In this document: in pieces, positions 1,424 to 32,000 of the stretch
Numbering within the stretch: position 1 is the stretch's first letter
Layout: every line of letters starts with the position of its first letter
Source of the DNA: an uncultured Chloroflexia bacterium
GTDB lineage: Bacteria > Chloroflexota > Ktedonobacteria > Ktedonobacterales > JADMIN01
Assembly (NCBI GenBank): GCA_963718915.1
Contig: CAVRAI010000001.1
Span: forward strand, 240,001-272,000
Direction of reading: 5' to 3'
DNA: 32,000 nt
Notes under the pieces: generated by a model
Told to the model about the DNA's origin: nothing
Seen by the model: the letters and a program-made list of their open reading frames with translations, nothing else
Databases searched by the model: none
Made by a program: the position numbers and the translations under genes

Positions 1424-3589
1424 CTATACCCGCACCTTGCTAAATGCCTCGACGATGTCGCCAACTTCCAGCGCGTTGTAGTCTTCGAGGATGAGGCCGC
1501 ACTCGTAGCCCTGCGCCACCTCGCGCACATCATCTTTGCCGCGCCGAATCGACTGGATCTGGCCGGTAAAGACCGTCTGGCCGCCGCGCTGGACGCGCAC
1601 CTGCGACGCACGGACAATCTTGCCATCGGTAATACGGCAGCCGCCGATAATGACCTGACGCCCGACCTTGAAGAGCTGCATCACCTCCGCGTGGCCATCT
1701 ACCTGCTCGCGATAGACTGGCTCCAGCAGACCCTTGAGGGCCGCCTCGATATCCTCGACGAGCTTGTAAATGATATTGTACGAGCGAATGTCCACGCCAT
1801 TGATGCTGGCGAGCCGCTGCGCCGCCGGATCCACCTTCACGTTGAAGGCGATGATGATGGCGCTGGATGCCGACGCCAGATAGACGTCGGTCTCGCCGAC
1901 ATTGCCCACGGCATCCTGAATCAGGCGCACCTTCAGGTTTTCCTCGGCGTGCTCCTCGCCGACACGACCCAGCGCGTGCCGGATCGCCTCCGCTGACCCC
2001 TGCACATCCGACTTCACCAGCAGGTTCAGTTCCTTGATCTTGCCCTCACGCATCTGCATATAGAGCGTATCCAGGGTGATGCTGTGGCCTGCCTGGCGGT
2101 CGGCCTCGCGCCGTTTCTGGATGAGCGTGCGCGCGGCTTTCTCATCCGCCACCACCTCGAGCCGGTCGCCCGCGGCGGGCACCTCTGAGAGGCCCAGAAT
2201 ACTCACTGGCGTGCTGGGCGTCGCCTTGCGAATTCGCTCTCCCTTGTCGTCGAACATCGCGCGGACACGCCCCGAGATCGTGCCGACCACAATCGTGTCG
2301 CCCACCTTGAGCGTGCCATCCTGCACGAGCGCGTTCGCCGCGACGCCGGTATTCTGGTCGAGGCGCGCCTCGATCACGACGCCGTGCGCCGAGCCGTTTG
2401 GGTTGGCCTTCAGGTCTTGCAGGTCGGCGACCAGCAGAATCATCTCCAGCAGTTCGGTGATACCAGTCTGCTTCTTGGCCGAGACCGGCACACAGACGAC
2501 CTCACCGCCGTACTCCTCGATGACGACACCATGATCGGCAAGCTGCTGCTTGACGTGGTCAGGGTTGGCGTTTGGCCGGTCGATCTTGTTGAGCGCGACG
2601 ACCAGCGGCACCTGCGCGGCGCGGGCATGGTCAATCGCCTCGATGGTCTGGGGCATCACGCCGTCGTCCGCCGCGACGACGATCACCGCGATATCCGTCA
2701 CCTGCGCGCCACGCGCCCGCATCTGCGTGAACGCCTCGTGACCTGGTGTATCCAGGAAGGTGATCTTGCGCCCGTTGACCTCCACCTGGTACGCGCCGAT
2801 GTGCTGGGTGATGCCGCCCGCCTCACCCGCCGCCACCTGCGCGTGGCGGATGGCGTCGAGCAGGGAGGTCTTGCCATGGTCGACGTGCCCCATGACTGTC
2901 ACGACCGGCGGGCGCGTAATCCGTCCGATATCGTTGGCATGTGCGGCAGCGCCGATCAGCGCCGCCTCTGGCCGAACCGCGACGGCGGGCGCGGCAGCCG
3001 CGACGGCGGCCTCCTCCGGGGTATAGCCAATCTGTTCGGCGACCTTTGCCGCCGCGTCATAGTTGACCACTTCGTTGATGCTGGCAAAGATGCTCAGAGT
3101 AATCAGATTGCGGATGACTTCATTGACCGAGACACTCAGCAATTCCGCCAGATCCTTGACGACAATCTGCGCGGGCAGCGCGACCGGGCCACTCGGCTTG
3201 ACCGCGACGGCCGCCGCGCGTGACGGGGCTGCCGCTGGTCCGTTGCCATTGCCGCGCCCATGTGGGCCACCTCTGCCACCGCGCGCGCCATTGCCGCCGG
3301 GCCGCCCACCACCGGGACGACCGCCAGGGCCACCAGGGCGCGGGCCGCCGCCCGGACGACCGCCAGGGCCACCAGGGCGCGGGCCGCCGGGTCCGCCAGC
3401 CGGGCGCGGGGGTCCGCCGCCGGGTCGTGGCGCGCCGGGACGCACACCACCGCCACCATTGGGGCCGCCAGCCGGGCGGGCAGTGGTGCCGGAGGGGAGA
3501 TGCGAGGGGGAGGCGCCAGCGGGACGTTGCGAAGCGGGCGAAGAAGATGATGTAGACGATGTGCGAGAACGAGAAGTAGTATCTGGCAT
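1424..3589 (-). CDS. infB: translation initiation factor IF-2
   Basis: G-domain motifs [20 protein letters not shown] and NKID, followed by IF2 C-terminal domains. Start chosen at ATG 3589 (MPDTTS...) because AGGAGGG lies 4-10 nt upstream. The ORF-track start at 3691 lacks an RBS. Confidence 0.97.
3315..3389. repeat. perfect 36-bp direct duplication (39-bp period) inside the infB N-terminal Pro/Gly-rich region
   Basis: GGACGACCGCCAGGGCCACCAGGGCGCGGGCCGCCG occurs at 3315-3350 and again at 3354-3389. It encodes a repeated [13 protein letters not shown] unit. Confidence 0.9.
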
Positions 3590-3634
3590 AGACCCTCCTG
3601 AAAAACCGGCATCTCCGGTGAGGACTTGATTACG

Positions 3635-3688
3635 AAAAAAACAATAAAAGCAGGCTGGCCATCTCCGGTTCTTCGAAGATTGCCAGCC
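3635..3688 (-). promoter_or_regulatory. terminator-like hairpin plus U-tract inside the infB 5' leader (candidate attenuator)
   Basis: Minus strand: GGCTGGC-C-ATCT...AGAT-T-GCCAGCC (11 bp, 1 mismatch) followed by TGCTTTTATTGTTTTTTT. It lies about 45-100 nt upstream of the infB ATG. A second small hairpin, ACCGG-AGATG-CCGGT+TTTT (3601-3619), abuts the RBS. Confidence 0.4.
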
Positions 3689-3964
3689 CAACGCGGCGGA
3701 TACTTGACGACCTGGATTCAGGCGCAGCTATGATTCTCTTGATGATAAGTCATGGAGTCATGCGCAGCCCAGGCGTGGTGGCGACGAATCGCGCACGTTT
3801 AAGCTCCCATAGCAATGCTCTCGCTATCCGCGTTGGGTGATAAATAGACGACGCTTCTAAAAGCAACGGGCATCTGGGGAAACTGAACTAGCGCATCCAT
3901 AACGATGTCATTCGCTCGCCGCGCTCGCCGCGCAGCGCATAATATCACTCTCCCCAACCTGAGT

Positions 3965-3993
3965 AGCATGACACAGAATCGCGCTCATGTCAA
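3965..3993 (-). promoter_or_regulatory. candidate sigma70-type promoter for infB
   Basis: Minus strand: TTGACA (3993-3988), 17-nt spacer, CATGCT (3970-3965). Confidence 0.3.
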
Positions 3994-4073
3994 GCGTGCG
4001 ACCACCGTGCTGAACCCGTCCGAACGCCGTTGCCATCGGGGTTGACGCCCTACCAATCCATCGGTTGGCCGCG

Positions 4074-4103
4074 TTGACAGCTACGCACGGCGCATGATAT
4101 GCT
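4074..4103 (+). promoter_or_regulatory. candidate sigma70-type promoter for the rpsP operon
   Basis: TTGACA (4074-4079), 18-nt spacer, TATGCT (4098-4103). It lies about 140 nt upstream of the rpsP ATG. Confidence 0.4.
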
Positions 4104-4244
4104 AGGGGGGCTTTTGCGTGCAAGCTTGGGCCGTAACGTCTACGAAACTCTGCGTTCGACAACGCGATACGCCGCGAGCGTCTCTCGCGTGTGAACAATA
4201 GATCAACCTACCCACTGATTATCTGTGAAGGGATTGCCTGAGAC

Positions 4245-4574
4245 ATGGTCAAGATTCGCCTTATGCGCATGGGCATGAAGGGCGCGCCAACCTATCGCGT
4301 CGTCGTCGCCGATGCCCGCTCGCCGCGTGATGGCCGCATTATCGAAAATATCGGCTGGTACAATCCACGCACCGAGCCATCAACGATCAACATTGACGCC
4401 GACCGCGCGAAGCACTGGCTTGGCGTTGGCGCGCAGCCGACCGACTCCGTGGTCTCGCTGCTGATTCGTAGCGGCATCATCCCACGGCCCTCGCGCGAGG
4501 AGACCGTCGCGAAGTCCGCTGTGAAGAAAGCCGCCGCCGCGAAGTCCGCTCAGTCGGCCAAGGCCAGCAGCTAG
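4245..4574 (+). CDS. rpsP: 30S ribosomal protein S16
   Basis: [41 protein letters not shown] is the canonical S16 N-terminus. It has an Ala/Lys-rich C-terminal extension. Confidence 0.97.
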
Positions 4575-13840: not shown

Positions 13841-15283
13841 ATGAGCCAGAGCAGCCTAGCAGTTCCCAGCGCCAGCAGCCCTTATAAAATCTTCCTCTCC
13901 TATCGCCGCTCGGATAGCCAGGCGACAGTGGATCACATCTTCGAGTGGCTGGTGCGCGCCTTTGGCCGCGAGGTGATCTTTAAGGATGTGGACACGATCC
14001 CGCGCGGCTACGAGTTCGCCCCCTATATCACCCATGTCCTCAGCCAGTGTCGCGTGGCGCTGCTGGCGCTTGGCCCCTCCTGGCCCACCGTCCTCGCGAC
14101 CGAAGGCGCCTACTCCGGGCGGCCCCGGCTGGACGACCCGGAGGATCATGTGCGGATTGAGACGGAGCAGGCGCTGGCCCTGGCTCCGGTGAATGCGACG
14201 GGCGCGCCTGCCAGCGCGTTACTGCTGATCCCCGTGCTGGTGCAGGGCGCGCAGATGCCACATCCAGGGGACCTGCCCGCGAGCCTGCAGCCGTTGTGCA
14301 GGCGCAATGCCACGCCCGTGCGCTATGACCCGGATTTCACCCGCGATATGCAGCGACTTATCAGCGATTGCGCCCACTGGATGGGCGTCCCCGTCCCCGA
14401 CCTGCTTGGCGCCAACCATACTCCAGCGTCGCTGCGTCCACCAGACGAGGTGGATGCGTTTCTGGCGGTCGCGACGCCTCAAATTCGCGACGCCTTCAGC
14501 GCGCAGAACTGGGCGCAGGTCATCCGGCAGGCGAAGGCGCTTCCTTTGCAGGTTCCTGCCGAGCGTGTACCTACTGAGGTGTATCAGATGTGGGGGCGGG
14601 CGCTCATGGCGATGCGTGACTATGGGGGCGCGAAGACCGCCTGGGACACCGTACGGCAGCGGGAGCCGCGCGATGTGGCGGCGTTGCGGGCGGCGGCGGA
14701 GGCACGAGTGGAGTTGAACGAGCAGGCCGAGGCGCTCACGCTGCTGGATGGCGCGTTGCTGCTCACACAGGGGGACGCTCAGCAGCAGGTGGCGTTGCTG
14801 GCGATATATGCCCACATCCTGCGCGAACTGGCCCAGAGCGAGCGTGGGGCCGCCGCCCAGGCGCACTGGGCGAACCTGCTGCGGGTGGTCAATGAAAGGC
14901 AATCGTTGGCGGGGACGCAGGACACTACCTGGCTGATAATGAAACTGGAAGCGCTTCGGGGATCGGGGCGTGATGTAGAGGCGCTGGAGGTGTTGGAGGA
15001 GGCGCGTGCGCTGACCGCCCGCGCGTCAGCCACCGCCGCGCAGTGGCTGACGCGCGCCCGGCTGGCCTGGACGCTGGCGGGCGAGGCTCCTAATGTTGAG
15101 GTGCGTGTCGCAATCGGCAACGCATCGCGTCTGGCTCCGGCTGATGGGGCGATTGCCTTGGAGCGTCAGCTCCTGCTGAAAGAAACCCTAACACCGCCAA
15201 TATCAGTTCGCTCGGATGGCTCAGCTGAAATTGCTATGCGCGATATGGCCATTGTCGGATTTGGGACTCTAGTACTTAAGTAA
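13841..15283 (+). CDS. TIR domain - TPR repeat protein, 3' end truncated and replaced by an IS insertion
   Basis: N-terminal YKIFLSYRRSDS...VRIETEQAL...LIPVLVQGAQMP resembles a bacterial TIR_2 domain. The C-terminal half is helical and TPR-like. The last 3 codons and the TAA stop (15272-15283) lie inside IS sequence. Confidence 0.85.
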   Translation: MSQSSLAVPSASSPYKIFLSYRRSDSQATVDHIFEWLVRAFGREVIFKDVDTIPRGYEFAPYITHVLSQCRVALLALGPSWPTVLATEGAYSGRPRLDDPEDHVRIETEQALALAPVNATGAPASALLLIPVLVQGAQMPHPGDLPASLQPLCRRNATPVRYDPDFTRDMQRLISDCAHWMGVPVPDLLGANHTPASLRPPDEVDAFLAVATPQIRDAFSAQNWAQVIRQAKALPLQVPAERVPTEVYQMWGRALMAMRDYGGAKTAWDTVRQREPRDVAALRAAAEARVELNEQAEALTLLDGALLLTQGDAQQQVALLAIYAHILRELAQSERGAAAQAHWANLLRVVNERQSLAGTQDTTWLIMKLEALRGSGRDVEALEVLEEARALTARASATAAQWLTRARLAWTLAGEAPNVEVRVAIGNASRLAPADGAIALERQLLLKETLTPPISVRSDGSAEIAMRDMAIVGFGTLVLK

Positions 15284-16220
15284 CTATCTCAAAAGGGACA
15301 AGCGATGGAGGCGGCGAAACCACAGCAGCGCGCAGGCCAGTTGGAGCAGCCCCCGAAAATTGGCGGCGTACTTGTCGTAGCGGATGAGCAGCGCGCGGCA
15401 CTTCGAGAGCCAGGCCAGCGTGCGCTCCACGACCCAGCGACGTGCCGGGAACCGCTTCTCACCCGTGGCCAGATCGAGCTTCTCCTTGCCGATGCGGCGC
15501 AGGTGCGGGATGTAGTGGTGGCTTGCCACCGCCGCGGCGCCGGTCGGATTGTCATAGCCCAGATCCAAACACAGATGCTGTGGCCGCTCCCGGGTCGGAT
15601 GAGGCCGCGCCACCACAACTGCCTCCAGCGTCGCCGCGAGCAGCTTGGTATCATGGACATTGGCACCAGCGATCACGACCGCCAGTGGGCCGCCAGCCGC
15701 CTCGACCAGCAGGCTGCGCTTCACTCCGCGTTTGCCGCGATCGGTGGGATTGCGGCCAATGAGGTCCCCCCCAGCCGGGCCTTGCCCAGCATGGCATCTG
15801 CCGCTTGCCACTCCCAGTCCACCCCACCCAACTCGGCACAGTGGTCCACCAGCGTGGCCCAGATGCACTCGAAAAAGCCCAGACGCACCCAGCGCTGGAA
15901 GGTGCGATGGACTGAGCTATCATCAGGGAACCGCTCCGGCAACTGGTTCCACTGGCAGCCGCTGCGCAGCCGAAAGATGAGTGCATCCAGCGTCCGCCGC
16001 GCATCCACGCGTGGCCGGCCCGTCGCCTGCGGCGGATCAAGCCTCGCCAGGATTGGGGCAATCACATCCCATAACTCATCGGAGACGGTCCAGATCGTCG
16101 CCATGGCGTTCCAATCGGGCCGGACCTTGCGTGGTCGCCCCATCCCTCACCTCCTGCCTGATCATCACTCCCTTCCACAGCACAGTCTACCGCACCTGAC
16201 AGCGTTCTGAGATAGTTACT
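15279..16220 (-). mobile_element. IS5-family (IS427/IS1031-like) insertion sequence nested in the IS630 left IR
   Basis: 942 bp. The IRs are AGTAACTATCTCA(A/G)AA at both ends. Flanking TA at 15277-15278 and 16221-16222. Carries an orfA/orfB transposase. Confidence 0.85.
15284..16143 (-). CDS. IS5-family transposase, orfA (15721-16143) and orfB (15284-15868) joined by a -1 frameshift
   Basis: orfA has ..GRPRVDARRTLDALIFRLRSGCQWNQLP... orfB has GRNPTDRGKRGVKRSLLVEAAGGPLAV..ANVHD. The frames overlap at a G7 run (C7 on the plus strand, 15766-15772). A -1 shift gives the canonical ..GKARLGGDLIGRNPTDRGK. Confidence 0.85.
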
Positions 16221-16277
16221 TAGTCCACATTGATTTGGGAGAAGGTGGTAGAATGCAGCACCAGAAAGGAGCCTCGT

Positions 16278-17416
16278 ATGCCCACCTCTACCCACCCCCT
16301 GACGTTGTCCGCCGCTGAACGCGCCCAGGCCCAGACCGTCATCCAGCGCGGACATACCGCTGCGCGAATCCAGCGGCGCGCCCATGTGCTCTTGAAATTG
16401 GCCGACGGCTGGAGCGCCGCCGCGATTAGCCAGGCGCTCGATGTCAGCCAGAATACGGTCTGGCGCGTGCGCCAACGCTTTGCCGCAGAGGGTGTCGCGG
16501 CGGTGCTCGCCGACCGGCGGCAGACGCGGCTCCGGGCCGCCTTGACCGGCGAGCAGCAAGCCCACCTCATTGCCGTCGCGTGCAGCGATGCGCCCGCTGG
16601 CCACGACCACTGGACGCTGCGCCTCTTGGCGGGCAAAGCGATCGAACTCGGCTTTGTGGAACGCATCTCGCCCGAAACCATCCGCGCCTTGCTCAAAAAA
16701 ACGCGCTGAAGCCCTGGCAGCACAAAGCCTGGTGTATTCCCACCGTGAGCGCCGCCTTTGTCGCGGCGATGGAGGATGTGCTCGCGCTTTACGCCCACGT
16801 CTATGCCGCTCCGCCCGATCCCCTGCGCCCCCTCGTCTGCCTCGATGAGAAGCCCGTCGTCTTGCACGGGCAGCCGCGGATGGGACTGCCGCCCGCTCCC
16901 GGCCGCGTGGAGCGCCGGGACTACGAATATATTCGGCAGGGAACGGCCAACCTCTTTGTGCTGGTCGCTCCGCATGCGGGCTGGCGTCACGTACGCGTCA
17001 CCGCGCGGCGTACCGCGCTGGACTATGCCCGCTGCTTGCGGTGGCTGGTCGAGGAAGCCTTCCCTCTGGCCGAGCGGATCGCGCTCGTGCAGGATAACCT
17101 CAACACCCATACCCTGGCCGCGCTCTATGCGGCGTTCCCGCCTGCGCAGGCGCGCGCTATCGCCAGCCGCTTGGAGGTGCACTATACGCCAAAACATGGC
17201 AGTTGGCTCAATATGGCCGAGATCGAGATCAGCGTCATCGAGCGCGGCTGCCTCGCGCGTCCAGTCCCCGATAACGACACGCTGGTTCAGCGCGTCACCG
17301 CCCTGGAGGCCGAGCGCAACGCAACTCACGCCCGCATCCGCTGGCAATTCACCCCCGATGATGCTCGTACCAAGCTGCATGCGCTCTATCCTAACCCTCA
17401 AATCAAACTGGACTGA
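16278..17416 (+). CDS. IS630-family transposase, orfA (16278-16709) and orfB (to 17416) joined by a -1 frameshift
   Basis: HTH N-terminus and a DDE region (DEKPV...VQDNLNTHT...YTPKHGSWLNMAEIE). The slippery A7 run at 16695-16701 gives ..ALLKKNALKPWQHKAWCIP. RBS GAAAGGAG precedes ATG 16278. Confidence 0.88.
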
Positions 17417-17526
17417 GTACTAGGAAGCACATTCGGTCTCGGGGTATGCCGAGACGTTGCCCGATTGTTTGGCGATTTATTTTGGCTGGCGGGATTATAC
17501 ACGTCGAACACCAAAATTTCCTCCGG

Positions 17527-18486
17527 ATGAAAACGCAACTACTTATGTCGAGATGTTCAGCAAATTTATTGAGTGTTGCCCCCAACGAAGAGCCCATGAT
17601 CGCAGCTACTCATCTTGTATCGCTCCTCGAAAGTTTCTATATCTCTACGCGGCGAAACACTGTAAAACCGCTGTTATGGGTAGTTGAGGGTCGAGATCTT
17701 ACTATTTGCCTTCCGGCGCTCAAGACATTGGGGAGGAAGCGCGACTTTGATGACATCCGTTTGGTCATCGTCTGGATTGTGCCTGATTCTATTGATCAGG
17801 CTTTGAAGGATAGCGCAGCTGAACTGCTAGCATGGTCGCAGCAGGTTGACACCATCCTGGCGACTACGCTGGTAATTCAGCATAACAGTCGGCTTGCCGA
17901 AACAATGAGGCGCAGCCAGTTCAACATCCTCTATAGGAGCATCGCCGCGCTCCTGGGCGGTGGCATGGTCAATCCTGAAGCCAACTTCGCCACTTTGACG
18001 ATTCAACTCCACAATGCCGGATACCCGTTCGTCGCTCTTGCGGCTGGCGCAATTGGTGTGAATGCATCTCACAGTAATTTCACTAACGGCTTGATCGTTG
18101 GCAATAGAGGAGATATCAACCCGATTGATGCCTCATTTAAGGTCAATCAATTGGCTTCTATGGCGCTCCGGAAAGAAAGTGAGTTGTCAACCGTCACCGA
18201 ATCGCTATCAGCGGTTCCTTTCGTCAACCTGGTCGTACCCACGCGCCTTCAGATGACAAGGGAGTTTCAGAGCGAGGTTTCCCACCGGCTCCGATTTGAA
18301 TATGGTGTGCCATCAGAGAATGTCATCGTCACGCCCTTGACCGATCCGAGAGATCGCGGAATCGATATCAGCAGGCAAAATAGATGGTTCAAGGGAGACT
18401 TCTATATCCACTTTACGGCTCTACGTGGTATTGGTACCGGGCATGGGGAGATACCCAAAGATTTGCAAGGTGAGGTATCCCTATAA
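17527..18486 (+). CDS. hypothetical protein in a low-GC island (possible degenerate FtsZ/tubulin-like fold)
   Basis: Long ORF (track 17446-18486) in a region of visibly lower GC. Start uncertain: ATG at 17446, 17527, 17545 or 17596. 17527 is preferred because of the ATGA overlap with the reconstructed upstream stop. No family confidently recognised. Confidence 0.6.
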   Translation: MKTQLLMSRCSANLLSVAPNEEPMIAATHLVSLLESFYISTRRNTVKPLLWVVEGRDLTICLPALKTLGRKRDFDDIRLVIVWIVPDSIDQALKDSAAELLAWSQQVDTILATTLVIQHNSRLAETMRRSQFNILYRSIAALLGGGMVNPEANFATLTIQLHNAGYPFVALAAGAIGVNASHSNFTNGLIVGNRGDINPIDASFKVNQLASMALRKESELSTVTESLSAVPFVNLVVPTRLQMTREFQSEVSHRLRFEYGVPSENVIVTPLTDPRDRGIDISRQNRWFKGDFYIHFTALRGIGTGHGEIPKDLQGEVSL

Positions 18487-18936
18487 GGACAGGACGAGGC
18501 CGCTGAGCCAGACGGTGCATTGCTCGATGGTCAGGCAGCCGCAGCTCATCCCCTCACGCAGGAGGCTCTGCATCGCGTGGATACGCGCCAGTTGCGCCTC
18601 CAACTCGTTGAGCTTGCGCTGAACCAGCGCCTCCCACCGCACCGACGGCGGCGTGCCAGCCTCGAAGCCGAAGAACAACTCGCGAATCTCGCCAAGGGTA
18701 AATCCCGCCTGCCGCGCGTGCGCGATCACCCGAAGCCGCTGAACCGTGCTGGTGTCATAGCGCCGCCGTCCGTTGAGTCGCGCGGGCATAGGCAAGAGGC
18801 CAATATCCTCGTAGTAGCGGATCACTGAGGTGGCGATTCCTGCTCGACGCGCGACCACGCCTATCGCCAGGCCAACCTCACTGCTCGAATGTGCCGCGTC
18901 GATTGGGTCGCATCCATCGTCGTCGTTCGCCGCCAT
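18481..18936 (-). CDS. MerR-family transcriptional regulator, SoxR-like
   Basis: HTH region LAIGVVARRAGIATSVIRYYEDIGLLP..NGRRRYD. C-terminal SCGCLTIEQC resembles the SoxR CxxCxCx5C cluster motif but lacks the first Cys. RBS GGAGAAA. Confidence 0.85.
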   Translation of the reverse strand: MAANDDDGCDPIDAAHSSSEVGLAIGVVARRAGIATSVIRYYEDIGLLPMPARLNGRRRYDTSTVQRLRVIAHARQAGFTLGEIRELFFGFEAGTPPSVRWEALVQRKLNELEAQLARIHAMQSLLREGMSCGCLTIEQCTVWLSGLVLSL

Positions 18937-18988
18937 CGCCTGTTTTCTCCACGATCCATCAAATTTCGCAATTTGGGCTGCTCATCCC

Positions 18989-19020
18989 TTGACTTCAAGC
19001 GCACTTGAAGAGTGTACGCT
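18989..19020 (+). promoter_or_regulatory. MerR-type promoter with overlong spacer and a SoxR-box-like dyad
   Basis: TTGACT (18989-18994), 20-nt spacer, TACGCT (19015-19020). The perfect inverted repeat CTTCAAG-cgca-CTTGAAG (18993-19010) is centred in the spacer. Confidence 0.6.
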
Positions 19021-19093
19021 GCTGAGCGAGGGAAAAACTACCCTCAGGCGATTGTGCGCTGTTCCAGATGTCAGGGACAGAAAGGAGTGTTCG

Positions 19094-19459
19094 ATGATGT
19101 CCGATGGTTCTGTGGATATCCCGGTAGCATGCAGTCTTACTGACGCTGAACTGGAGGTTCGGGGCGACGAAAATGCTGACCTATTCGCGCATGCTCGTGC
19201 GGTCGAGGAGTTACCAGACGGCTATCGCTTCGCCTTCCCGGCGGACGATGATGGCGTCCCGGCGCTGCTACAGTTCATCCTTGCCGAGCGCGCCTGCTGC
19301 CCGTTCTTCACGTTCGAGTTGCTGTTCCCTGCACCACACCAGGTCGTCTGGGTGACGATTCGGGGCAATGAAGAAGCCAAGGGGATTGTGCGCGATGGGC
19401 TGGTGCCGAAAGTTCGCGCACAGTCTGTAACATCGTCAGGAAATGGCTCAGCAGCGTGA
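19094..19459 (+). CDS. small Cys-containing protein (ACSL ... ERACCPFFTF motif), divergent from the merR-like gene
   Basis: ATG 19094 is preceded by AAAGGAG. 121 aa. A conserved-looking CCPFF motif suggests a metal or redox ligand site. Family name not recalled. Confidence 0.65.
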   Translation: MMSDGSVDIPVACSLTDAELEVRGDENADLFAHARAVEELPDGYRFAFPADDDGVPALLQFILAERACCPFFTFELLFPAPHQVVWVTIRGNEEAKGIVRDGLVPKVRAQSVTSSGNGSAA

Positions 19460-19553
19460 GCATCGAGTAAGGCTTACATACAGTCAGGCGGAGGGAAGCC
19501 CGCCATGGGCCACCATCCGCCTGAAGTGTGTCTCTCGGTTGTTTGCGCTGGGT

Positions 19554-19907
19554 TTAGACATACCGCGCGTTGCGTGGGCCGACGAAGATCGTGTTGGGGC
19601 TGAAGTACGCCAGCACCATCAGCAGAATCCACAGCGCGAACGTCACAAAGCCGACCAGGCCAGCGAGCAACCCGAAGACAAAGCCGATTATCGGGATGTG
19701 GCTCATCATTCCGCCCAACAGACCGATCAGGCCCAGCGAGCCGAAGATGACCACCGACTGCATGGCATGGCGCCGAACCGTCTGATTCCGTTGCTCCACG
19801 AACAGCAGAATCAGCCCTGATACCCAGATGAACGCGTATGCGAGCACCCGCTCCCAGCGCTCCTGGATGCCAAGCGTGGTCGGGCTAGAATAGTTTTGGT
19901 TGTACAT
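19554..19907 (-). CDS. DUF4870-like small membrane protein
   Basis: ERWERVLAYAFIWVSGLILLFVEQRNQTVRRHAMQSVV matches the pattern of the DUF4870 / Tic20-like family (ER..A.LaY....sGl..l......fvRfHA.QS). About 3 TM. Confidence 0.65.
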   Translation of the reverse strand: MYNQNYSSPTTLGIQERWERVLAYAFIWVSGLILLFVEQRNQTVRRHAMQSVVIFGSLGLIGLLGGMMSHIPIIGFVFGLLAGLVGFVTFALWILLMVLAYFSPNTIFVGPRNARYV

Positions 19908-21605: not shown

Positions 21606-23093
21606 ATGCCTGCTGCTACACCCAAAATCGATGTGGAGTATGAGGTCACTATCGGCCTGGAGGTCCACGCGCAACTGCTCACTGAGAGTAAGATGTTCTG
21701 CCGCTGCTCGACGGGCTATGCCAACGCGGCGCCCAACACTCACAACTGTCCCATCTGCATGGGATTTCCGGGGACGCTGCCGGTTATCAACGAGCAAGCG
21801 ATTGACTATACCATCATGACGGCGCTGGCGCTCAACTGTCACATCGCCGAATACTCGAAGTTCGACCGCAAGAACTACTTCTATCCCGATCTGCCCAAGG
21901 GCTATCAAATCTCGCAGTATGACGTCCCGCTGAGCGCCAATGGCTACCTGATGATCCACATCAATGGCGAGGACCGCCGCATCGGCATCACGCGCATCCA
22001 CCTGGAGGAAGACACCGGGCGTCACCTGGAGCGCGAGGCACACGGCGAGGCCTATAGCCTGATCGACCTGAACCGTGCGGGCGTCCCGCTGATGGAGATC
22101 GTCGGCGAGCCAGACATCCGCACGCCGGAGGAGGCGCGGCTCTACATGGAGAAGCTGCGCACCGTCCTGCTCTATCTCGGAGTGAACTCCGGTCGCATGG
22201 AGGAGGGCGCGCTACGCTGCGACGCGAATATCTCTGTGCGCCCGAAGGGGCAGAAGGAATTTGGCTCGAAGGTCGAGATCAAGAACATGAACTCGTTCCG
22301 CGCGGTCGAGCGGGCGCTGGCCTATGAGGCGGAGCGCCAGGAGGCAGAATTGCGCGCCGGGCATACCATTCCCCAGCAGACCCGCGGCTGGCGCGAGGAC
22401 AAAGGCATTACAGTGGCGCAACGCTCCAAAGAAGAGGCGAACGACTATCGCTACTTCCCGGAGCCAGACCTGCCGCGGCTGGTTGTCAGCCGGGAATGGG
22501 TCGAGCGGATTCGCGCCGAGATGCCCGAACTGCCCGACGCCACACGCGAGCGCTTCATCGCGACCTATGAGCTTTCCGACTACGACGCCGACCAGCTGAC
22601 GGCGGAACGCGCACTGGCCGAATATTTCGAGGCGGCGGTGCAGGCGCGCCCGGCGACGAATCGCATTGCGCGGGCAAAGTCGGTGGCGAACTGGGTGGTT
22701 GGCGACCTACGGCGACTCTTGAACGCCGCGGGGACGGATATCGGCGCGAGCCCGGTAGCGCCAGTGGCCATCGCCGAGCTGGTGGAACTGGTGGAGCGGA
22801 ATACGATCAACGGCAAACAGGCGAAGGACGTGCTGGAGAAGGCATTTGCCAGCGGCGAGGCGCCGGGGGCGATTGTTGCGCGCGAGGGCATCGCGCAGAT
22901 CAGCGACCAGGGCGAGTTGGTGGCTGCCGTCGAGGCGGCGATAGCGGAGAATCCCAAAGCAGTCGAGGACTATAAATCGGGCAAGACCAGCGCGGTACAG
23001 TTTCTGGTCGGCCAGGTGATGAAACGGACGAAGGGCCGCGCAAAGCCCGACGCCGTAAGCCTGCTGCTGGTGGAGAAACTCGAGAGTCTCTAA
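21606..23093 (+). CDS. gatB: Asp-tRNA(Asn)/Glu-tRNA(Gln) amidotransferase subunit B
   Basis: 495 aa. [14 protein letters not shown]-terminus, [11 protein letters not shown] motif and a YqeY-like C-terminal domain. Confidence 0.97.
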
Positions 23094-25647: not shown

Positions 25648-26676
25648 ATGGCCGAGCGCAACAACGACCTCTGCGACGTTGCGGGTATTCTCGTCGGGCA
25701 CGATACCGACCTGGAGGCGGGGACTGGCTGTACCGTCATCCGATGCGCCTGGCCCGCGCTTGGCGCCGTGGATGTGCGCGGCGGCGCGCCCGGTACGCGC
25801 GAAACCGATCTGCTCGATCCGCGCTGCATGATGACCGAGGTACACGCGGTAGTGCTGACGGGAGGTAGCGCCTTTGGGCTGGCTGCCGCCGATGGCGTGA
25901 TGCGCGCGCTGGCTGAGGAGGGTGTCGGGTTCGACGCTGGCCCGGCGCGCGTGCCGATTGTTCCAGCGGCGGTGCTCTTCGATCTGGGCGTTGGCCGCGC
26001 CGATGTCCGTCCCGATGCGGCGTCGGGGATGCGGGCTGTGCGGGCGGCAGCCGGTGGGCCGATTGCGCAGGGAACGGTGGGCGCGGGCACGGGAGCGACG
26101 GTCGGCAAGATGGCTGGCCCGGCGCTCGCCGTCAAGGGTGGTGTCGGCTCCGCCAGCGAGCAACTGCCCGATGGCCACGTAATCGGCGCGCTGGTCGCCG
26201 TCAACGCGCTCGGCGACATCTACGACGCCGAAACGGGACGTCTGCTGGCGGGCGCACGCAGCCCCTCAGGCCAACGCTGGCTGGCGGACGACATTGCCGC
26301 CGCGCGGAGTGGCGCGCCGACACAACCACCCGCCCCGGAGTCGCCACCAGTTCCGGGCACGCAGACGACGCTGGCCGTCATCGCGACCGATGCGCCCTTC
26401 ACCAAAGCCGAACTGGCCAAGCTCGCCCAGATGGCGCACGACGGGCTGGCGCTGGCGATTCGCCCGGTCCATACCCCCTTCGATGGCGATGTCGTCTTCG
26501 CCCTCTCCACCGCGCAAACCGCCGCCACTGCCGCTCCCGCTGGCGCGCTACCCCTGGCGCTGGCTGGCGGAGTGGCCGCTCGGACGCTGGCCCGCGCCGT
26601 CGCCAACGCGATTCGCGCCGCCATCGGGCTGCACGGCGTCCCGGCACTACTTGAGTTGCCCTTCGCGCGAGAATGA
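25648..26676 (+). CDS. P1 / S58 (DmpA-type) family aminopeptidase
   Basis: Motifs GTGCTVI, RGGAPGTRETD, LTGGSAFGL, GTVGAGTGA, TTLAVIATDAPF and FDGDVVFALST. RBS GAGGAG. Confidence 0.88.
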   Translation: MAERNNDLCDVAGILVGHDTDLEAGTGCTVIRCAWPALGAVDVRGGAPGTRETDLLDPRCMMTEVHAVVLTGGSAFGLAAADGVMRALAEEGVGFDAGPARVPIVPAAVLFDLGVGRADVRPDAASGMRAVRAAAGGPIAQGTVGAGTGATVGKMAGPALAVKGGVGSASEQLPDGHVIGALVAVNALGDIYDAETGRLLAGARSPSGQRWLADDIAAARSGAPTQPPAPESPPVPGTQTTLAVIATDAPFTKAELAKLAQMAHDGLALAIRPVHTPFDGDVVFALSTAQTAATAAPAGALPLALAGGVAARTLARAVANAIRAAIGLHGVPALLELPFARE

Positions 26677-26704
26677 AGGGGGCGCGCGTTCGTCACAGCC
26701 GCTA

Positions 26705-27436
26705 TCAATAGACGAGGTGCAGGTAGAAGCCGACGATGAAGCGGGCCACAAACGCTGTAATCGCAAACCAGCCCAGCAGGATCAGCGCCGACACCACCAG
26801 ACTGACGCGCGTGCGCCAGCGGTGAATCGCCTGTCCATTCCCCAAACGCACGGCGACGCCGCTCAGGATGAAGCTCCCCATCGCGCTAGCCGCCGTGACC
26901 GCCGCGAGCGCCTGAATGATGATCGGAGACCTTTCGAAGACGATATTGATCAGTTGGGAGATGGCTGGGGGCAGGCGCATGCGGAACGATCCAACCGCCG
27001 GGAGCGAACTCAGGCCGAAGATCAAGATAATAGCAAACCCAACCAGACTCACGACCAGACAGATGGCGGCCCATTTTTCCAGCCGCGCCAGCGCCGCCAC
27101 ATTGTCCGAGGAGCGCCGCGCCCGGCGTCCCAGAAGGATGGCCACCACCGCCAGTGCTAGAATCGCCAGGAAGCTGACGATCACGATCACCGAGATGCGC
27201 GCCAGGGCCGCCTGCTGAAATGGCGTGACATCGCCGCGATAGGCGGGGAAGCTGCTCAGTTCAGCAGGGCGCAGCGCCGACGCGGTGAGTTCCATGACCA
27301 GCAGCCAGACCGCCGACGCAACGAAAGCAACACTGCCACAGGTGGCGCTGATCGCGGTCAGCCATCGCCCACGCCCCTGCGCCCGCGAACCATTGTTCGC
27401 TGGATAGGGAGTCTGGCCAGACGGTGAAAGCGTCAC
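26705..27436 (-). CDS. hypothetical polytopic membrane protein
   Basis: 243 aa with 5-6 hydrophobic segments. GTG start is preceded by GGAGGG. Divergent from the 27747 operon. Confidence 0.55.
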   Translation of the reverse strand: MTLSPSGQTPYPANNGSRAQGRGRWLTAISATCGSVAFVASAVWLLVMELTASALRPAELSSFPAYRGDVTPFQQAALARISVIVIVSFLAILALAVVAILLGRRARRSSDNVAALARLEKWAAICLVVSLVGFAIILIFGLSSLPAVGSFRMRLPPAISQLINIVFERSPIIIQALAAVTAASAMGSFILSGVAVRLGNGQAIHRWRTRVSLVVSALILLGWFAITAFVARFIVGFYLHLVY

Positions 27437-27746: not shown

Positions 27747-29852
27747 GTGTCGCTTACATTACTTTTCGGCTTGATGACGTTGGCGCCGGCCGTCGTCGCG
27801 ATTCTTCTCGTCATCCTTTCGCGTGTCACCACATTCCGCCTGCCGTCGCCGGTCGCATTCGCCCTGGCGGGGCTGGCAGCGGCCGCGCCAATTGTCGGGC
27901 TGATTCTGCTCAGTTCCGATCTCACCTTCCCCACGCCGCTTCGCTTCGCCTTCGCGGGCAATAGCGCCACGCCGTTCGCGCCGGTCTTCCGCGCGGATGG
28001 CTTTTCCTTCTACAGCGCCTGGGGCATCGCGGTGCTGATCGTGCCGCTGTTGCTCTGGCTGGTCTGGATGGACGCGGGCCGGGCAGCAAGCTCATCCGGT
28101 CGGCTGCTGGCCGAGCTGGGACTGGTGATCGGCCTCGAAGCGTGCGCGCTGCAACTGGTCTTCTCCGATAACCTGCTCTGGTTCGGCCTGGTCTGGCTCG
28201 CGTTGGTAGCGCTGACATGGTACCTGGGAGAACAGGGCGCCGAGAGCAGTAATCTCGATTATCGCGGCCTGATTGCGATGCTGATTGGGCCAGCGTTGAC
28301 AGTGCTGCTGCTACTGCTCATCGCGATCACCACCAAAGATCACACGTTCTACGGGCTGGCGGGCCATTCAGCCGCGTCGCCGTGGCAGATCGTCCTGCTG
28401 GCGGTAACACTCTCGCTGGCGGGCGGTGGCTATCCGTTCGTTGCGTGGGTGCGCCGGAGGGCCGCGTTTGCCACGCCGTCCGGGTTCGGCGCGCTCCTGG
28501 CGCTGGCGCTGCCGATGGTCGTCTTTGTCGGCGCGCGCTCATGGAGCGCCCTGCAAGCGACCACCAGCGGACTCTGGCCGCAGATTGGCGCGGTGACGCC
28601 GCCGATCACCGGAGGCATCGCGCTGGCGGTGCTCGGCTCGCTCTCGGTTGCCATTGCTGGTCTGCTGGCGCTTGGGCGCCGCGATGGGCGCACCCTGGTG
28701 GCGCTGCTCGCGACCGCGCAGGTCGGCTGGGGGCTGTTCGCCCTCGGCTCGTCACAGCCCGCCGCCGCTATCGGCGTGGTCATCTTGCTGGCGACCAGTG
28801 TGGTGGGTATCGGCGCGATGACGGCGGCGCTGGTTTCCGGCGGCATACTGACGGCGGATGATGAGCCTGACGGATCTGGCCCAGCGCCGTTTGGCCTGGC
28901 GTCACGCCCACTCAACCTTCTTGCCTGGTCTGTCGGCGCGGCTACCGCGCTGGGTGTCCCGTTCTTCGGCGGGTTCATCGCGCGCAACCAGATTACCGCC
29001 GGCACGCTTGCCGGGACGAAACTGGGCATCCCGCTCCTTGGCCTTGCCTGGCTGGGCGATGCGCTCTTTGCGCTGGCGCTGATCCGAGCGACGGTGCTGG
29101 CCTTCAAGGCCGACCCGGACGAACTGGCGGGCGATGAGACCGAAAAACCCGCGCGTTCCTCCGCGTCGGAGTTGCTGGAGCTGCCCGGAGCGGTGCTGGC
29201 GGTCATCGGGATCGCGCTTGGCATCTTCCCCCAGACATTCCTGAATATGGGCGCTCTCTTCGCGGTCGATCAGATAACGCCCGCAGGCGCCGCGAATGGC
29301 GTGCTGCGCGTCATATCGTTCGGCTACTCGACCGGGAATAGCCAGTGGCTCCCCGGCATCTTCTGGCTGGCGGCGGTGGTGCTGACAGGCGCCATTCTGC
29401 TCATCCGCCTGGGAACGCACCGCACCGCGGTGACGCTGGAGATCAGCGGCGAGGCAGAGTTGACCGGCATGGAACGCGACGCGCTGGACGAGCCTGCGGT
29501 CGTCTGGGTTGACCTCGCCTCCGCCTTTACCTCGTCCTGGACGCAGGTGGCGGGCAGTCAGCTCATCGGCGGTATCGATGAAGATGACGAATACATCGAG
29601 GCGCAACTGGACGACGACGACGAGGGCGACGATGACAGCGGCCCCGACGACACGACGCCTCCTGACGACGCCGATGACGGCGCCGCGACGCCCGAAAAAG
29701 GTGTGGCTCCGGCCAATGGCGTGACAGCAGAGGCAAACGTGGCCGACGAGACCGCCGAGGACACATCCGCCGAAGAGGCGCCCGTCAACGAACGCAAGGC
29801 GGCGAAGCAGGGCGCCCGTAAAGCCGGACAGCGCGGCCAGTCGCGGCAATAG
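27747..29852 (+). CDS. divergent complex-I antiporter-like subunit (NuoL/M/N - HycC/HyfB - MrpD superfamily) with an acidic disordered C-terminal tail
   Basis: Segments collinear with PF00361-type proteins. FRADGFSFYSAWGIAVLIVPLL matches the N-terminal motif. SDNLLWFGLVWLALVALTWYL matches the TM5 region. GGGYPFVAWVRRRAAFATPSGFGALLA corresponds to K..PFH.WLPDA..APTPVSALL. LLALGRRDGRTLVALLATAQVGWG corresponds to Al.Q.DlKRlLAYSSi.H.G. RBS AAGGGAGG. Confidence 0.6.
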   Translation: MSLTLLFGLMTLAPAVVAILLVILSRVTTFRLPSPVAFALAGLAAAAPIVGLILLSSDLTFPTPLRFAFAGNSATPFAPVFRADGFSFYSAWGIAVLIVPLLLWLVWMDAGRAASSSGRLLAELGLVIGLEACALQLVFSDNLLWFGLVWLALVALTWYLGEQGAESSNLDYRGLIAMLIGPALTVLLLLLIAITTKDHTFYGLAGHSAASPWQIVLLAVTLSLAGGGYPFVAWVRRRAAFATPSGFGALLALALPMVVFVGARSWSALQATTSGLWPQIGAVTPPITGGIALAVLGSLSVAIAGLLALGRRDGRTLVALLATAQVGWGLFALGSSQPAAAIGVVILLATSVVGIGAMTAALVSGGILTADDEPDGSGPAPFGLASRPLNLLAWSVGAATALGVPFFGGFIARNQITAGTLAGTKLGIPLLGLAWLGDALFALALIRATVLAFKADPDELAGDETEKPARSSASELLELPGAVLAVIGIALGIFPQTFLNMGALFAVDQITPAGAANGVLRVISFGYSTGNSQWLPGIFWLAAVVLTGAILLIRLGTHRTAVTLEISGEAELTGMERDALDEPAVVWVDLASAFTSSWTQVAGSQLIGGIDEDDEYIEAQLDDDDEGDDDSGPDDTTPPDDADDGAATPEKGVAPANGVTAEANVADETAEDTSAEEAPVNERKAAKQGARKAGQRGQSRQ

Positions 29853-29877: not shown

Positions 29878-30828
29878 ATGAACGGGGTGTTGAGTTTTGC
29901 ACTGGCGGTGCTGATTTATCCGGGATTGCTGGTGGCGGTGGTCGCGGGTGTGGCGCTGCTCCTGGTACGGGCGGTCGCCAGCGGCGCGGCGGGTGGCGAG
30001 AAGGGCGATTTCATCGCCGACCTGCGCGAGTCCTGGCAGGGTGAGACGATTGCGCCAGACGGTGTGAGTGAGTCCGCGCTGACGCTCAGCAGCGTCGTCG
30101 CGATCCTCGCGCCCGCGCTGGCGCTCGTGATGCTGCCAGTGCCCGGCAATCCACTGGTGACGGCGATTGGCCTGAAGGGCGATCTGGTGGCGGAGGGCGC
30201 GCTGTTGCTGGGGCTGCCGCTGGCGCGATTGTTTGTCGGCTGGCTGACGCCGACCCCCCTCACGCGCATTGCCGCCGACCGAGGCGCGCGCTTGCTAGCC
30301 GGGGCGGCGCTCTCCCTGACGCTCTCACTCACCGCCATCGCCCAGCAGTTCGACACGCTGACGATTGCCAACGCGCCCATCAAAGCGCCCAGCGGTATCT
30401 TGATCGCCGCGCGCGTGTTGGCCGCGCTTGCCTTTATCTGTGTGCTGCCCGTGCTCACGCGCATCACCGCGATTCGCGAGCCGCGCGACGCCGAGGATAC
30501 AGCCCCCGACGAGTTGCTGGAGGTCACGGGGCGCGACCGCTTCTGCTTCCGGCTTGGCGAGGCGATTCAGCTTGCGGCGACCGCGGGCTTTTTCCTTGCA
30601 GTCTTCGTCATGCCCTTCTTCTCCGTGGCGCCACAGGGCGCGGCCATGGCGATCATCTGGATCGTCGGGCTGCTACTGACGGCGGCGGGCATTGGCGTGT
30701 GGGACGCGCTACGCCGACAGATGCCCGTGGGCAACGATCATCCACCGCTGACCTGGTGGCTGGGCTGGCCACTGCTGATCTCGTTGGCGGCGCTGGTCGT
30801 CACCGCCTGGGCCACGCGCGGGGTCTAG
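29878..30828 (+). CDS. divergent NuoH/HycD-like membrane subunit
   Basis: 316 aa, about 8 TM. GDFIADLRESWQGETIAPDG resembles the NuoH/HycD loop (..aD..Kl..KE...P). DELLEVTGRDRFCFRLGEAIQLAATAGFFLAVFVMPFF resembles E.EL.eG...EysG..F.....aEy......lf..P. RBS AGGAGG. Starts 25 nt after the upstream stop. Confidence 0.5.
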   Translation: MNGVLSFALAVLIYPGLLVAVVAGVALLLVRAVASGAAGGEKGDFIADLRESWQGETIAPDGVSESALTLSSVVAILAPALALVMLPVPGNPLVTAIGLKGDLVAEGALLLGLPLARLFVGWLTPTPLTRIAADRGARLLAGAALSLTLSLTAIAQQFDTLTIANAPIKAPSGILIAARVLAALAFICVLPVLTRITAIREPRDAEDTAPDELLEVTGRDRFCFRLGEAIQLAATAGFFLAVFVMPFFSVAPQGAAMAIIWIVGLLLTAAGIGVWDALRRQMPVGNDHPPLTWWLGWPLLISLAALVVTAWATRGV

Positions 30829-30855
30829 CCGGGCCACGATCTGCGCAGTTGAGTG

Positions 30856-30886
30856 GAACCTGTCAGATGAGATGTCTGGCAGGTTC
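30856..30886 (+). terminator. 12-bp hairpin after the NuoH-like gene (weak terminator candidate)
   Basis: GAACCTGTCAGA-tgagatg-TCTGGCAGGTTC, with one U-G pair that works only on the plus-strand RNA. There is no clear U-tract (GTTGCATTC). Confidence 0.3.
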
Positions 30887-31196
30887 GTTGCATTCACGCT
30901 TGTGAACGATACGTCCCAACGGCATATTTGCAGGTTCTTGCCTCCTCTCATCCCCATGTGTTGATGTTCCCATACATACTTCTGGTATAGAATGCCTCAG
31001 CATAATGTATGCCTTGTGCGCGTAAACCCAACAATGTACACCTATTCTCTTTTGCTGACACGGATGATATAGTGACTTTGCATTGACCTGGTCAGCCAAT
31101 TTGTAAAGCAAGCGAAGCATAACCAAGCAAACCGGATAACACTTCCCGCGCGTTTCCTCGTACTGTTTTGCTGTTGAATGAGGATAAGGCTCGCGT

Positions 31197-31373
31197 ATGA
31201 ATTGCCCACAATGTCAAGACTGCTCGTTGTGTGGCCATCGACAGACGCTCTCCCTCGACAACCGCGTCAACCGCACCTACACCTGTCTCTGTTGTGGCAT
31301 CGTCGTAGACCGCGACTGCAACGCGAGCCGGAACATATTAAGACTGGGACGACAGTCTCTGGCGTCGGCCTAA
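31197..31373 (+). pseudogene. tnpB: C-terminal zinc-ribbon remnant of an IS200/IS605-family TnpB (OrfB)
   Basis: The 58-codon ORF MNCPQCQDCSLCGHRQTLSLDNRVNRTYTCLCCGIVVDRDCNASRNILRLG matches the TnpB C-terminal pattern C..CG....l..R...C..CG...DRD.NA..NI. Stops lie immediately upstream, and no RuvC or WED region was found. Confidence 0.7.
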
Positions 31374-31610
31374 CCGAGCTTAGAAACTGTTATGCACTCA
31401 AGGTCGAACGGCCCAGGAAGCCTAGAATACGAGACTGGAAGAGCGGCAGAACGCCAGGAGAGGTGCAAAACCACACAACTGAGCGATGATACGAGCGGCT
31501 TTAGCCTCATCGCGTGTCCAATTCTACAGCGTTCTACGATAGTCACCGTCAAGTCTTTAACAGGCTCTAGGCTAAAACCACCTGAGACGCCAATAGACGA
31601 GGGAGCGGAG

Positions 31611-32000
31611 ATGATGCATACGGATAGATTGCGTTGGCGGCTGTCAGGTATTCTGTCTTCGGCGCTGCTCATCTCCGCCCTGTGTGTGGGCGGCTGTACC
31701 CCGGCGCTGCACGGCGCGTCCAGCACGACATCGGCGCAACTGGGCAACGGCGTGTTGGCATGGCCCTTCGATACCCATTCTGGCGCGTGGGTGATTGAGA
31801 ATGGCTACAACTGGAACGCCAGCAACGGTGGTCTCGATCATGGCTGTTCATCTTATGGGCAAACCTGCTACGAACAAGATTCCTTCGACTTCCAGATCAG
31901 TGGCCCTCAAGGCAGCACAATTGGCGCGCAAGTGTTGAGTCCAGTCGCTGGGAGTCTGGTAGACTTCCAGAGCGCTGTTCCAGGTGATGGTAGTTCGGGT
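31611..32000 (+). CDS. putative secreted lipoprotein (3' partial; possibly M23-like)
   Basis: ATG is preceded by GGGAGCGGAG. Signal peptide with a lipobox-like LISALCVGGC. Open to the window end. The GLDHG...SPVAGSLV pattern is only weakly M23-like. Confidence 0.55.
   Translation, partial: MMHTDRLRWRLSGILSSALLISALCVGGCTPALHGASSTTSAQLGNGVLAWPFDTHSGAWVIENGYNWNASNGGLDHGCSSYGQTCYEQDSFDFQISGPQGSTIGAQVLSPVAGSLVDFQSAVPGDGSSG

Follow-up and report, generated by a model that had tools for sequence, protein, structure and literature searches.

The window analyzed here, a 32,000-nt stretch of DNA from an uncultured Chloroflexia bacterium (positions 240,001 to 272,000 of contig CAVRAI010000001.1, assembly GCA_963718915.1), contains on its + strand an open reading frame (ORF), called here the flagged ORF, that had been singled out in a preliminary description as a separate protein resembling FtsZ and tubulin and encoded next to a TIR gene. 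Our comparative analyses indicate instead that the two belong to the same gene, split by insertion sequences (IS) and a 1-nt frame break, which largely refutes the idea of a separate protein. The locus is best explained overall, with a probability of around 0.8, as one IS-disrupted chimeric pseudogene comprising a TIR domain, TPR-like repeats and a module that we designate a pseudo-tubulin. From the alignments described below, it is highly likely that this gene includes the flagged ORF as its 3′ part; that the module has the fold of tubulin and FtsZ is very likely, judging from its predicted structure. The locus should thus be annotated as one IS-disrupted pseudogene; separate entries for a TIR gene and a hypothetical protein would be wrong.

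A six-frame hmmsearch of the window with a hidden Markov model (HMM) of the family of the flagged ORF located the pieces of the module (Table 1). Positions 6-21 of the HMM align to the end of the upstream TIR-TPR ORF ('...SAEIAMRDMAIVGFGT', nt ~15221-15270), positions 23-57 to 'GSTFGLGVCRDVARLFGDLFWLAGLYTSNTKISS' at 17423-17524 in frame +2 (E=2.8e-7), and positions 45-379 to the flagged ORF at 17485-18486 (E=6e-101). The short segment at 17423-17524 is in a frame different from that of the flagged ORF and abuts the right TA copy of the target of an IS element. This outer element shows the features of the IS630 family (HTH and DDE_3 regions, inverted repeats, TA duplication and a size of 1.1-1.2 kb): its own sequence amounts to ~1.2 kb after subtracting a second, nested element, its ORFs for the HTH (16230-16709) and DDE_3 (16580-17416) parts match Pfam models (DDE_3, E=3e-21, plus HTH_32/HTH_23), its terminal inverted repeats of 21 nt agree at 86%, and it is flanked by a duplicated TA at 15270-71 and 17421-22. 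The nested element, of 942 bp, has 18-nt inverted repeats that are 94% complementary, a TA/TTA duplication at its flanks and two overlapping ORFs on the - strand, matching DUF4096 (15721-16143, E=7e-23) and DDE_Tnp_1 (15284-15868, E=5e-16); two such ORFs, the repeats, a duplication of 2-3 bp and a size of ~0.9 kb are those of the IS5 family (IS427-like group).

In-silico removal of 15272-17422 joins GGG ACT CTA to GGA AGC, coding for G-T-L-G-S, and yields 'AIVGFGTLGSTFGLGVC', which is the GxGxxGS motif of the family in frame and with the correct spacing; the outer element had thus entered between the codons for GFGTL and GSTF, and received the IS5-family insertion afterwards. When one C is also added to the C-run at 17523-24, the result is a single ORF of 831 aa without any internal stop and with the architecture TIR - TPR/helical region - tubulin-fold module. 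An independent assembly from ENA (L002) is collinear with 13867-18519, with 94% identity, and has both IS elements, so that the disruption is seen in both assemblies. L002 has CCC at the site of the frame break but one G fewer in a nearby G-run (GGG/GG, window position 17492), and both sequences differ by 47 gaps in all over 4.7 kb, including single-base homopolymer indels at 17492 and 17524, which suggests that the consensus of at least one of the two assemblies contains long-read errors and that frameshifts in the window need caution. We infer that the gene is dead in this genome and, since S1-H1-S2 (strands, S, and helices, H, named as in tubulins; loops, T) are missing from the flagged ORF, that this ORF would be unlikely to fold alone. 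The G1 box region was previously described as absent; this holds for the ORF itself and fails for the gene, in which the G1/T1 strand and loop are split over ~15221-15271 and 17423-17524. Separately, the nested IS5-like insertion lies in the left inverted repeat of the outer element and probably immobilises the IS630-like element.

The upstream ORF encodes 480 aa with an N-terminal TIR domain and TPR-like repeats. The match to Pfam TIR_2 (E=1.1e-5, 26.4 bits) is slightly below the 28-bit cutoff, and close homologues carry this same domain (PF13676); additionally, TPR models match, PADLOC returns a ThsB-like match (E=1.7e-6), and the TIR part gives weak matches to plant TIR structures in the PDB. 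Its closest relatives by BLASTP, 52-64% identical over aa 10-453, are proteins of ~700 aa (P0028-P0036) in which a TIR domain and this helical region are combined with an FGE-sulfatase (FGS) domain at the C-terminus, and one of them is labelled Ktedonobacterales. The architecture is thus shared along the N-terminal ~445 aa up to the C-terminal module, whereas the FGE-sulfatase/C-type-lectin-like domain (PF03781), for which a Pfam scan of the window protein gave no match, is replaced in the window by the low-GC tubulin-fold module. Homology to the TIR-TPR-FGS proteins stops at aa ~445-453, corresponding to nt ~15176-15200, the recombination junction of the chimera, where GC falls from ~0.69 to ~0.50 and where homology to the tubulin-fold family starts. 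Because homology and composition switch at one point, we conclude that a foreign tubulin-fold cassette took the place of the FGS module in a TIR-TPR gene of resident type, and that the IS630 insertion into the chimeric gene came later and killed it.

The composition of the flagged ORF (GC 0.50; GC content at third codon positions, GC3, 0.54) is clearly different from that of the adjacent upstream TIR-TPR coding region (GC 0.667, GC3 0.78), from the whole window (0.63) and from neighboring housekeeping genes (0.63-0.67), in agreement with its earlier description as a low-GC ORF. A windowed GC/GC3 profile supported this distinct composition and narrowed it: the low GC, taken before as the mark of a horizontally acquired patch of genes, belongs exactly to the C-terminal module of the chimeric gene, the TIR-TPR half being host-like. 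Pseudogene decay was considered as the source of the low GC and rejected, as the equally disrupted TIR-TPR half keeps a GC3 of 0.78. Homologues of the tubulin-fold module on other contigs have a GC of ~0.60 and a GC3 of ~0.74, from which the donor of the module in the window would seem to be unsampled.

The completed window domain (377 aa) was modelled with AlphaFold2 (AF2), with no templates and an alignment of 18 family sequences. The model (mean predicted local distance difference test score, pLDDT, of 89.5; predicted TM-score, pTM, of 0.90) has the topology of FtsZ and tubulin, with elements ordered S1-H1-S2-H2-S3-H3-S4-H4-S5-H5-S6-H6/H7-H8-S7-H9-S8-H10-S9-S10. As in FtsZ, tubulin, CetZ and BtubA/B, with an identical order of elements, there is a predicted six-stranded Rossmann-like N-terminal domain (S1-S6), the long core helix H7 and a C-terminal domain (S7-S10). 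A Foldseek search with this model retrieved 634 PDB matches at E<=1e-3, and the best 50 of these were all proteins of the tubulin superfamily (E ~1e-9 to 5e-8, probability 1.00, TM-score 0.46-0.64, 370-430 columns), including alpha/beta-tubulin, gamma-tubulin, CetZ2, BtubA, Asgard tubulins and FtsZ of S. aureus and M. tuberculosis. Hence the suggestion of a degenerate member of the tubulin/FtsZ superfamily, for which a check with AlphaFold and Foldseek had been proposed, was borne out by structure prediction and not by sequence.

The family of the module is very rare, and neither Pfam, NCBIfam, PADLOC nor PHROGs holds a model for it; the product of the flagged ORF gave no match at E<=1 in the first two of these libraries and none in the other two. 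A word-indexed search of 5.8 billion proteins retrieved three relatives (3-9 with word-based searches overall), and 20 were retrieved when 1.84 billion cluster representatives were searched exhaustively with an HMM. Pattern scans found no further loci in GTDB genomes, JGI metagenome contigs or IMG/VR viral contigs, and tblastn found none in PLSDB plasmids. Most relatives have 700-1030 aa and match in their C-terminal region; ahead of it, a transmembrane scan shows a hydrophobic segment at the N-terminus and a cluster of about five more. On other contigs, the module is the predicted cytoplasmic C-terminus of a membrane protein with ~6 transmembrane segments. All the full-length relatives contain S1-H1-S2, and their strand-loop motif 'RDLAIVGFGSxGS' is situated ~60 residues upstream of the point at which the ORF in the window starts.

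The native gene order is best seen in two contigs (L003 and L088), where the gene for the membrane protein with the module is followed by those for a soluble paralog (385-520 aa), a polytopic membrane protein (~500 aa) and a fourth protein (750-1000 aa). Contig L006 shows the first three genes and then ends, contig L001 starts within its first gene, and L091/L092 show the neighborhood without an identified fourth gene. The soluble paralog begins 'IVGIGPSSSQF'; its own AF2 model has a pLDDT of 63 and a long disordered insert, and Foldseek matches it in the PDB best to E. coli FtsZ (E=6e-7) and next to tubulins. The native operon would thus encode a pair of tubulin-fold paralogs. The fourth protein has a Walker-A-like GGGKST in the L001 copy, which also contains hydrophobic stretches noted by eye, and a weak NACHT match (E=1e-3) in the L003 copy. 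Otherwise, Pfam scans of the neighboring proteins gave no confident domain and no vWA or GTPase match.

Other genes were seen around some members of the family. Two genes of ~270-307 aa without Pfam match are located divergently upstream in L088 and L091/L092, and L003 has one, of 293 aa. A distant member, P0026 (775 aa; L004 157-12484 / L005), adjoins two VirD4/TraG/HerA-like ATPases, and its other neighbors include Replic_Relax, NACHT and PIN proteins and three SSB genes; this setting looks like an integrative or conjugative, or otherwise mobile, element. Protein P0016 (961 aa) gave five partial matches and has the look of an anomaly caused by repeats or fragmentation.

The canonical signatures of a GTPase are lacking in the module. 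Neither GGTG nor the GG.G..G tubulin signature occurs in the flagged ORF or in any of the aligned family members (18/18), and the S4-H4 connection in the AF2 model consists of two residues, 'GR', in the place where FtsZ has the GGGTGTG phosphate loop. Both the missing GTP-binding signatures and the replacement of the GGGTGTG T4 loop had been correctly anticipated from the sequence. Likewise, the loop between H7 and H8 (T7) is variable across the family (NPEAN in the window), with no conserved Asp or Glu in the family alignment and nothing corresponding to NxDxxD/E, although the Phe immediately after this loop is nearly invariant. As in the FtsZ/tubulin superfamily, there is a glycine-rich, T1-like loop after S1, GxGxx[G/A/S]S, which in the window protein, once reconstructed, reads GFGTLGS; 13 of the 18 members have GxGxx[GAS] among their first 60 residues, and two of the other five are N-terminally truncated. 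The reduction of the T4 signature to a two-residue turn and the lack of a conserved acidic residue in T7 indicate that the module is very probably a pseudo-tubulin and not a canonical GTPase. Altogether, the module lacks three hallmarks of the superfamily (its signature motif, an acidic residue in T7 and any match to its profiles), and from its model it would be a new degenerate variant of the tubulin superfamily, and neither an FtsZ nor a tubulin.

These same data bear on the alternative that the module is a working, nucleotide-dependent polymerising homologue of tubulin and FtsZ, with a non-canonical GTP/ATP site built on the GxGxxGS loop and a cytoskeletal or membrane-remodelling role, its fusion to TIR being accidental and non-functional. 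Conservation of the T1-like loop in most members agrees with this possibility, as does the usual pairing of a membrane-anchored and a soluble paralog with membrane proteins, which recalls the contexts of FtsZl1 (PMC2875224); additionally, no intact TIR fusion was seen elsewhere and one neighborhood is chromosomal, among housekeeping genes. Nevertheless, the T4 signature loop, which contacts the phosphates in every known member of the superfamily, comprises just two residues here and no acidic residue is conserved in T7; a STAND/NACHT-like partner and the replacement of FGS in a TIR protein fit conflict systems better, and we consider this alternative improbable.

Similarity to FtsZ in sequence was no better than chance. 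In a Smith-Waterman comparison with E. coli FtsZ (taken from NC_000913), the flagged ORF scored 40 against 35.5 +/- 5.6 for shuffled sequences (z=0.8), with 53/300 shuffles scoring as high as the real alignment, and the global alignment gave z=0.1. Using hhalign, in local as well as global mode, the family profile matched E. coli FtsZ with a probability of 0.35%, and the sole local match was to the H7-T7-H8-S7 region, which is the third of four FtsZ-like blocks recognized by eye in the preliminary description. On the AF2 model these blocks correspond to S4-T4-H4, S5-H5-S6, H7-T7-H8-S7 and S8-H10-S9-S10; their register thus fits structural elements of the model, whereas they are statistically invisible in sequence, and the by-eye similarity in itself did not rise above chance. 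The profile searches proposed at that time were equally negative: the flagged ORF matched none of Pfam Tubulin, FtsZ_C, Tubulin_3/Misato or Tubulin_2 at E<=1 (the last one presumably corresponding to FtsZl1), and the family profile found no tubulin or FtsZ among all PDB sequences.

The only PDB match from a single-sequence phmmer search was to EcoRI (E=0.96, non-significant), through a local 'NGLxVGxRGD' in the segment at 17990-18030 (protein NFTNGLIVGNRGD vs NIRNGLLVGKRGD in EcoRI). It was rejected as a chance match: Gly and Ile occupy the positions of the catalytic Glu and Lys, and the match is gone with the family profile. Accordingly, neither the PD...(D/E)xK catalytic motif of EcoRI-like enzymes nor a significant sequence match to them was found. 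The AF2 model shows this segment as a beta-hairpin inserted after S7, conserved in the family as 'G.I.G.rGdInP'.

The EcoRI match and the lack of a tubulin profile match are what speaks for assigning the domain to some generic alpha/beta protein, Rossmann-like or other, or to an EcoRI-like restriction endonuclease in decay, with the resemblance to tubulin being an artefact of the model. Apart from the weakness of the EcoRI match, this is countered by a model that places both tubulin domains and H7 in the right order with a pTM of 0.90, and by the independently modelled paralog, which also matches FtsZ and tubulin. Furthermore, a Foldseek search of BFVD, a library of predicted viral structures that is rich in alpha/beta folds, returned only five proteins at E<=1e-3, two named 'Cell division protein' and 'Tubulin' and three without a name in the tables used, followed by PhuZ at 4.8e-3 and then by unrelated folds at E>0.01. 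This distribution suggests that the tubulin-fold match is specific and does not reflect a generic Rossmann match, making an unrelated fold very improbable.

The + strand ORF at 17446-18486 has 346 aa counted from its first ATG, and a second ATG at 17527 gives the version of 319 aa that was originally described, so that the ORF was real; the choice of the gene caller was a product of 313 aa. This continuous ORF with its two ATGs and called product could be read as an intact, independent gene for an N-terminally shortened FtsZ-like protein naturally without a G1 region, a reading that is largely refuted, and the least probable of all, because the family homology runs upstream in another frame to the IS630 end and resumes in the TIR-TPR ORF, because excision of the IS restores the glycine-rich motif in frame, and because the Rossmann-like sheet would be incomplete without the S1-H1-S2 found in every full-length relative.

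Several points weigh against the preferred reading of a chimeric TIR-TPR-pseudo-tubulin pseudogene. No sequence or profile method makes the link of the family to tubulin and FtsZ, and for this reason the assignment of fold rests on a predicted structure derived from a shallow alignment of 18 sequences, with moderate TM-scores (0.5-0.64) and root mean square deviations (6-7 A) for the fold matches. The module may bind a nucleotide, given the conservation of the T1-like glycine loop. The 1-nt frame break may be a sequencing (homopolymer) error rather than a real mutation. Searches among the family and among the homologues of the TIR-TPR protein found no other TIR fusion of the tubulin-fold module and, with no intact fusion found anywhere, the chimera may never have been functional. 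Finally, the native operon is without a characterised member, one of its contexts (L091, an 80-kb contig) is flanked by ordinary chromosomal housekeeping genes and not by defence genes, and the functional role of the module, be it assembly, decoy or sensor, is one that we infer entirely.

Compared with well-known FtsZ/tubulin superfamily members, the module differs by its lack of detectable sequence or profile similarity, of the (A/G/S)GGTG(S/T)G T4 signature and of the T7 acidic residues, and by its fusions, one paralog being joined to an N-terminal region with ~6 transmembrane segments and the module of the window to TIR-TPR. Two paralogs encoded side by side are also found in BtubA/B and alpha/beta-tubulin. 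FtsZl1 and FtsZl2 are divergent bacterial families of the superfamily, not involved in division and with membrane-associated contexts, among which a transposon-disrupted member fused to transmembrane segments was also noted (Makarova & Koonin 2010; PMC2875224). The family described here resembles them in being a divergent branch of the superfamily in bacteria, in its membrane-associated contexts and in having a transposon-disrupted member. The GGGTG(S/T)G loop, however, led to the discovery of FtsZl1 and FtsZl2 and is retained in both, and FtsZl1 has links with vWA proteins and GTPases (PMC2875224). Since the module lacks this loop and any Pfam tubulin match, and has a different neighborhood in which Pfam scans showed neither vWA proteins nor P-loop GTPases, it is neither FtsZl1 nor FtsZl2. 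The conflict systems that Kaur, Burroughs, Iyer & Aravind (2020) described have vWA-MoxR or GAP1 GTPases at their centre (PMC7159879); these were not seen beside the module family, and the supplement of that work contains no tubulin entries as text.

Lacking both the phosphate loop and the catalytic residue of T7, the module would be unlikely to run a GTPase-driven cycle of polymerisation. TIR effectors are generally activated by clustering, which leads to the cleavage of NAD+. We propose tentatively, at rather less than even odds, that the module could be a unit for protein-protein assembly or recognition, associating with itself or with its paralog in the style of tubulins, or alternatively an inactive decoy or sensor; in an intact chimera it would cluster the TIR domains, or else detect a target, and so activate their NADase. 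An assembly or recognition role is favored by the conserved surface residues, the pair of paralogs and the replacement of a ligand-binding FGS domain. The conflict systems of multicellular bacteria show a comparable modular logic, with FtsZ/tubulin modules as rare effectors and with enzyme-like domains that are inactive 'decoys' (PMC7159879). More doubtful still is the wider proposal that the module represents a previously undescribed 'pseudo-tubulin' branch of the superfamily without a GTPase signature, which would normally occur as a membrane-anchored and soluble pair of paralogs, alongside a further membrane protein and a STAND-like NTPase, in bacteria of Chloroflexota type, and which would be portable enough to take over the slot of the FGS sensor domain in a TIR-TPR immune protein.

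If true, this would amount to a nucleotide-independent, tubulin-fold module for assembly or decoy used in bacterial conflict or immunity. The well-studied proteins of the tubulin superfamily are GTP-dependent polymers, and a conserved family that keeps the fold and loses the motifs would test what this fold does without a GTPase cycle, a question that the membrane-anchored and soluble pair makes experimentally approachable. An exchangeable module in the slot of the ligand-binding FGS domain would likewise link the tubulin fold to the modular immune proteins of bacteria, and the locus, marked by a sharp break in GC, is a concrete example of module swapping.

Table 1. Components of the disrupted gene in the window, and loci with the native neighborhood of the module family on other contigs.
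Feature	Coordinates	Strand	Evidence
5′ half of the disrupted gene: TIR + TPR/helical region	13841-15175	+	Pfam, PADLOC, homology, GC
Start of the low-GC module: linker, S1 and first part of the T1 loop, '...SAEIAMRDMAIVGFGTL'	15176-15271	+	Family HMM 6-21, GC 0.495
IS630-family element, termini GTACTTAGTCC...GGACTGAGTAC	15272-17420	+	Inverted repeats, junctions, DDE_3
IS5-family (IS427-like) element nested in the IS630-like left terminal repeat	15279-16220	-	Inverted repeats, DUF4096, DDE_Tnp_1
Continuation of the module: rest of the T1 loop, H1 and S2, 'GSTFGLGVCRDVARLFGDLFWLAGLYTSNTKISS'	17423-17524	+	Family HMM 23-57
1-nt frame break, CC vs CCC in L002	17523-17524	+	DNA alignment, ORF reconstruction
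Flagged region: predicted H2 through S10 of the module, ~320 aa, GC 0.50	17525-18486	+	Family HMM 45-379, AF2, Foldseek
Native neighborhood loci	L001 1385-7868; L003 3874-9704; L088 6101-11932; L091 12753-17768		

On the 3′ side of the flagged ORF there is a convergent MerR-family gene (18481-18936, - strand), and past it a 209-aa ORF without Pfam match and a gene for a DUF4870-like small membrane protein (19554-19907, - strand); the region holding these last two (18830-19907) has a somewhat lowered GC of 0.53-0.60. Dips in GC to 0.54-0.57 also occur at 30500-32000 and 3500-4500, the rest of the window being at 0.62-0.70. The GatB protein of the host (gatB, 21606-23093) shows at most 59% identity to that of any of 185,579 GTDB species representatives, with the best matches in Chloroflexota (Dehalococcoidia, Thermomicrobiales), a metagenome-assembled genome of Bacillota (57%) and Dormiibacterota; from this low identity, the source lineage of the window appears to be poorly sampled and only distantly related to sequenced species. 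Two further ORFs, of 701 aa (27747-29852) and 288 aa (26294-27160), have no Pfam match at E<=1e-4, and the AT skew of the former is strongly negative (-0.2 to -0.3).

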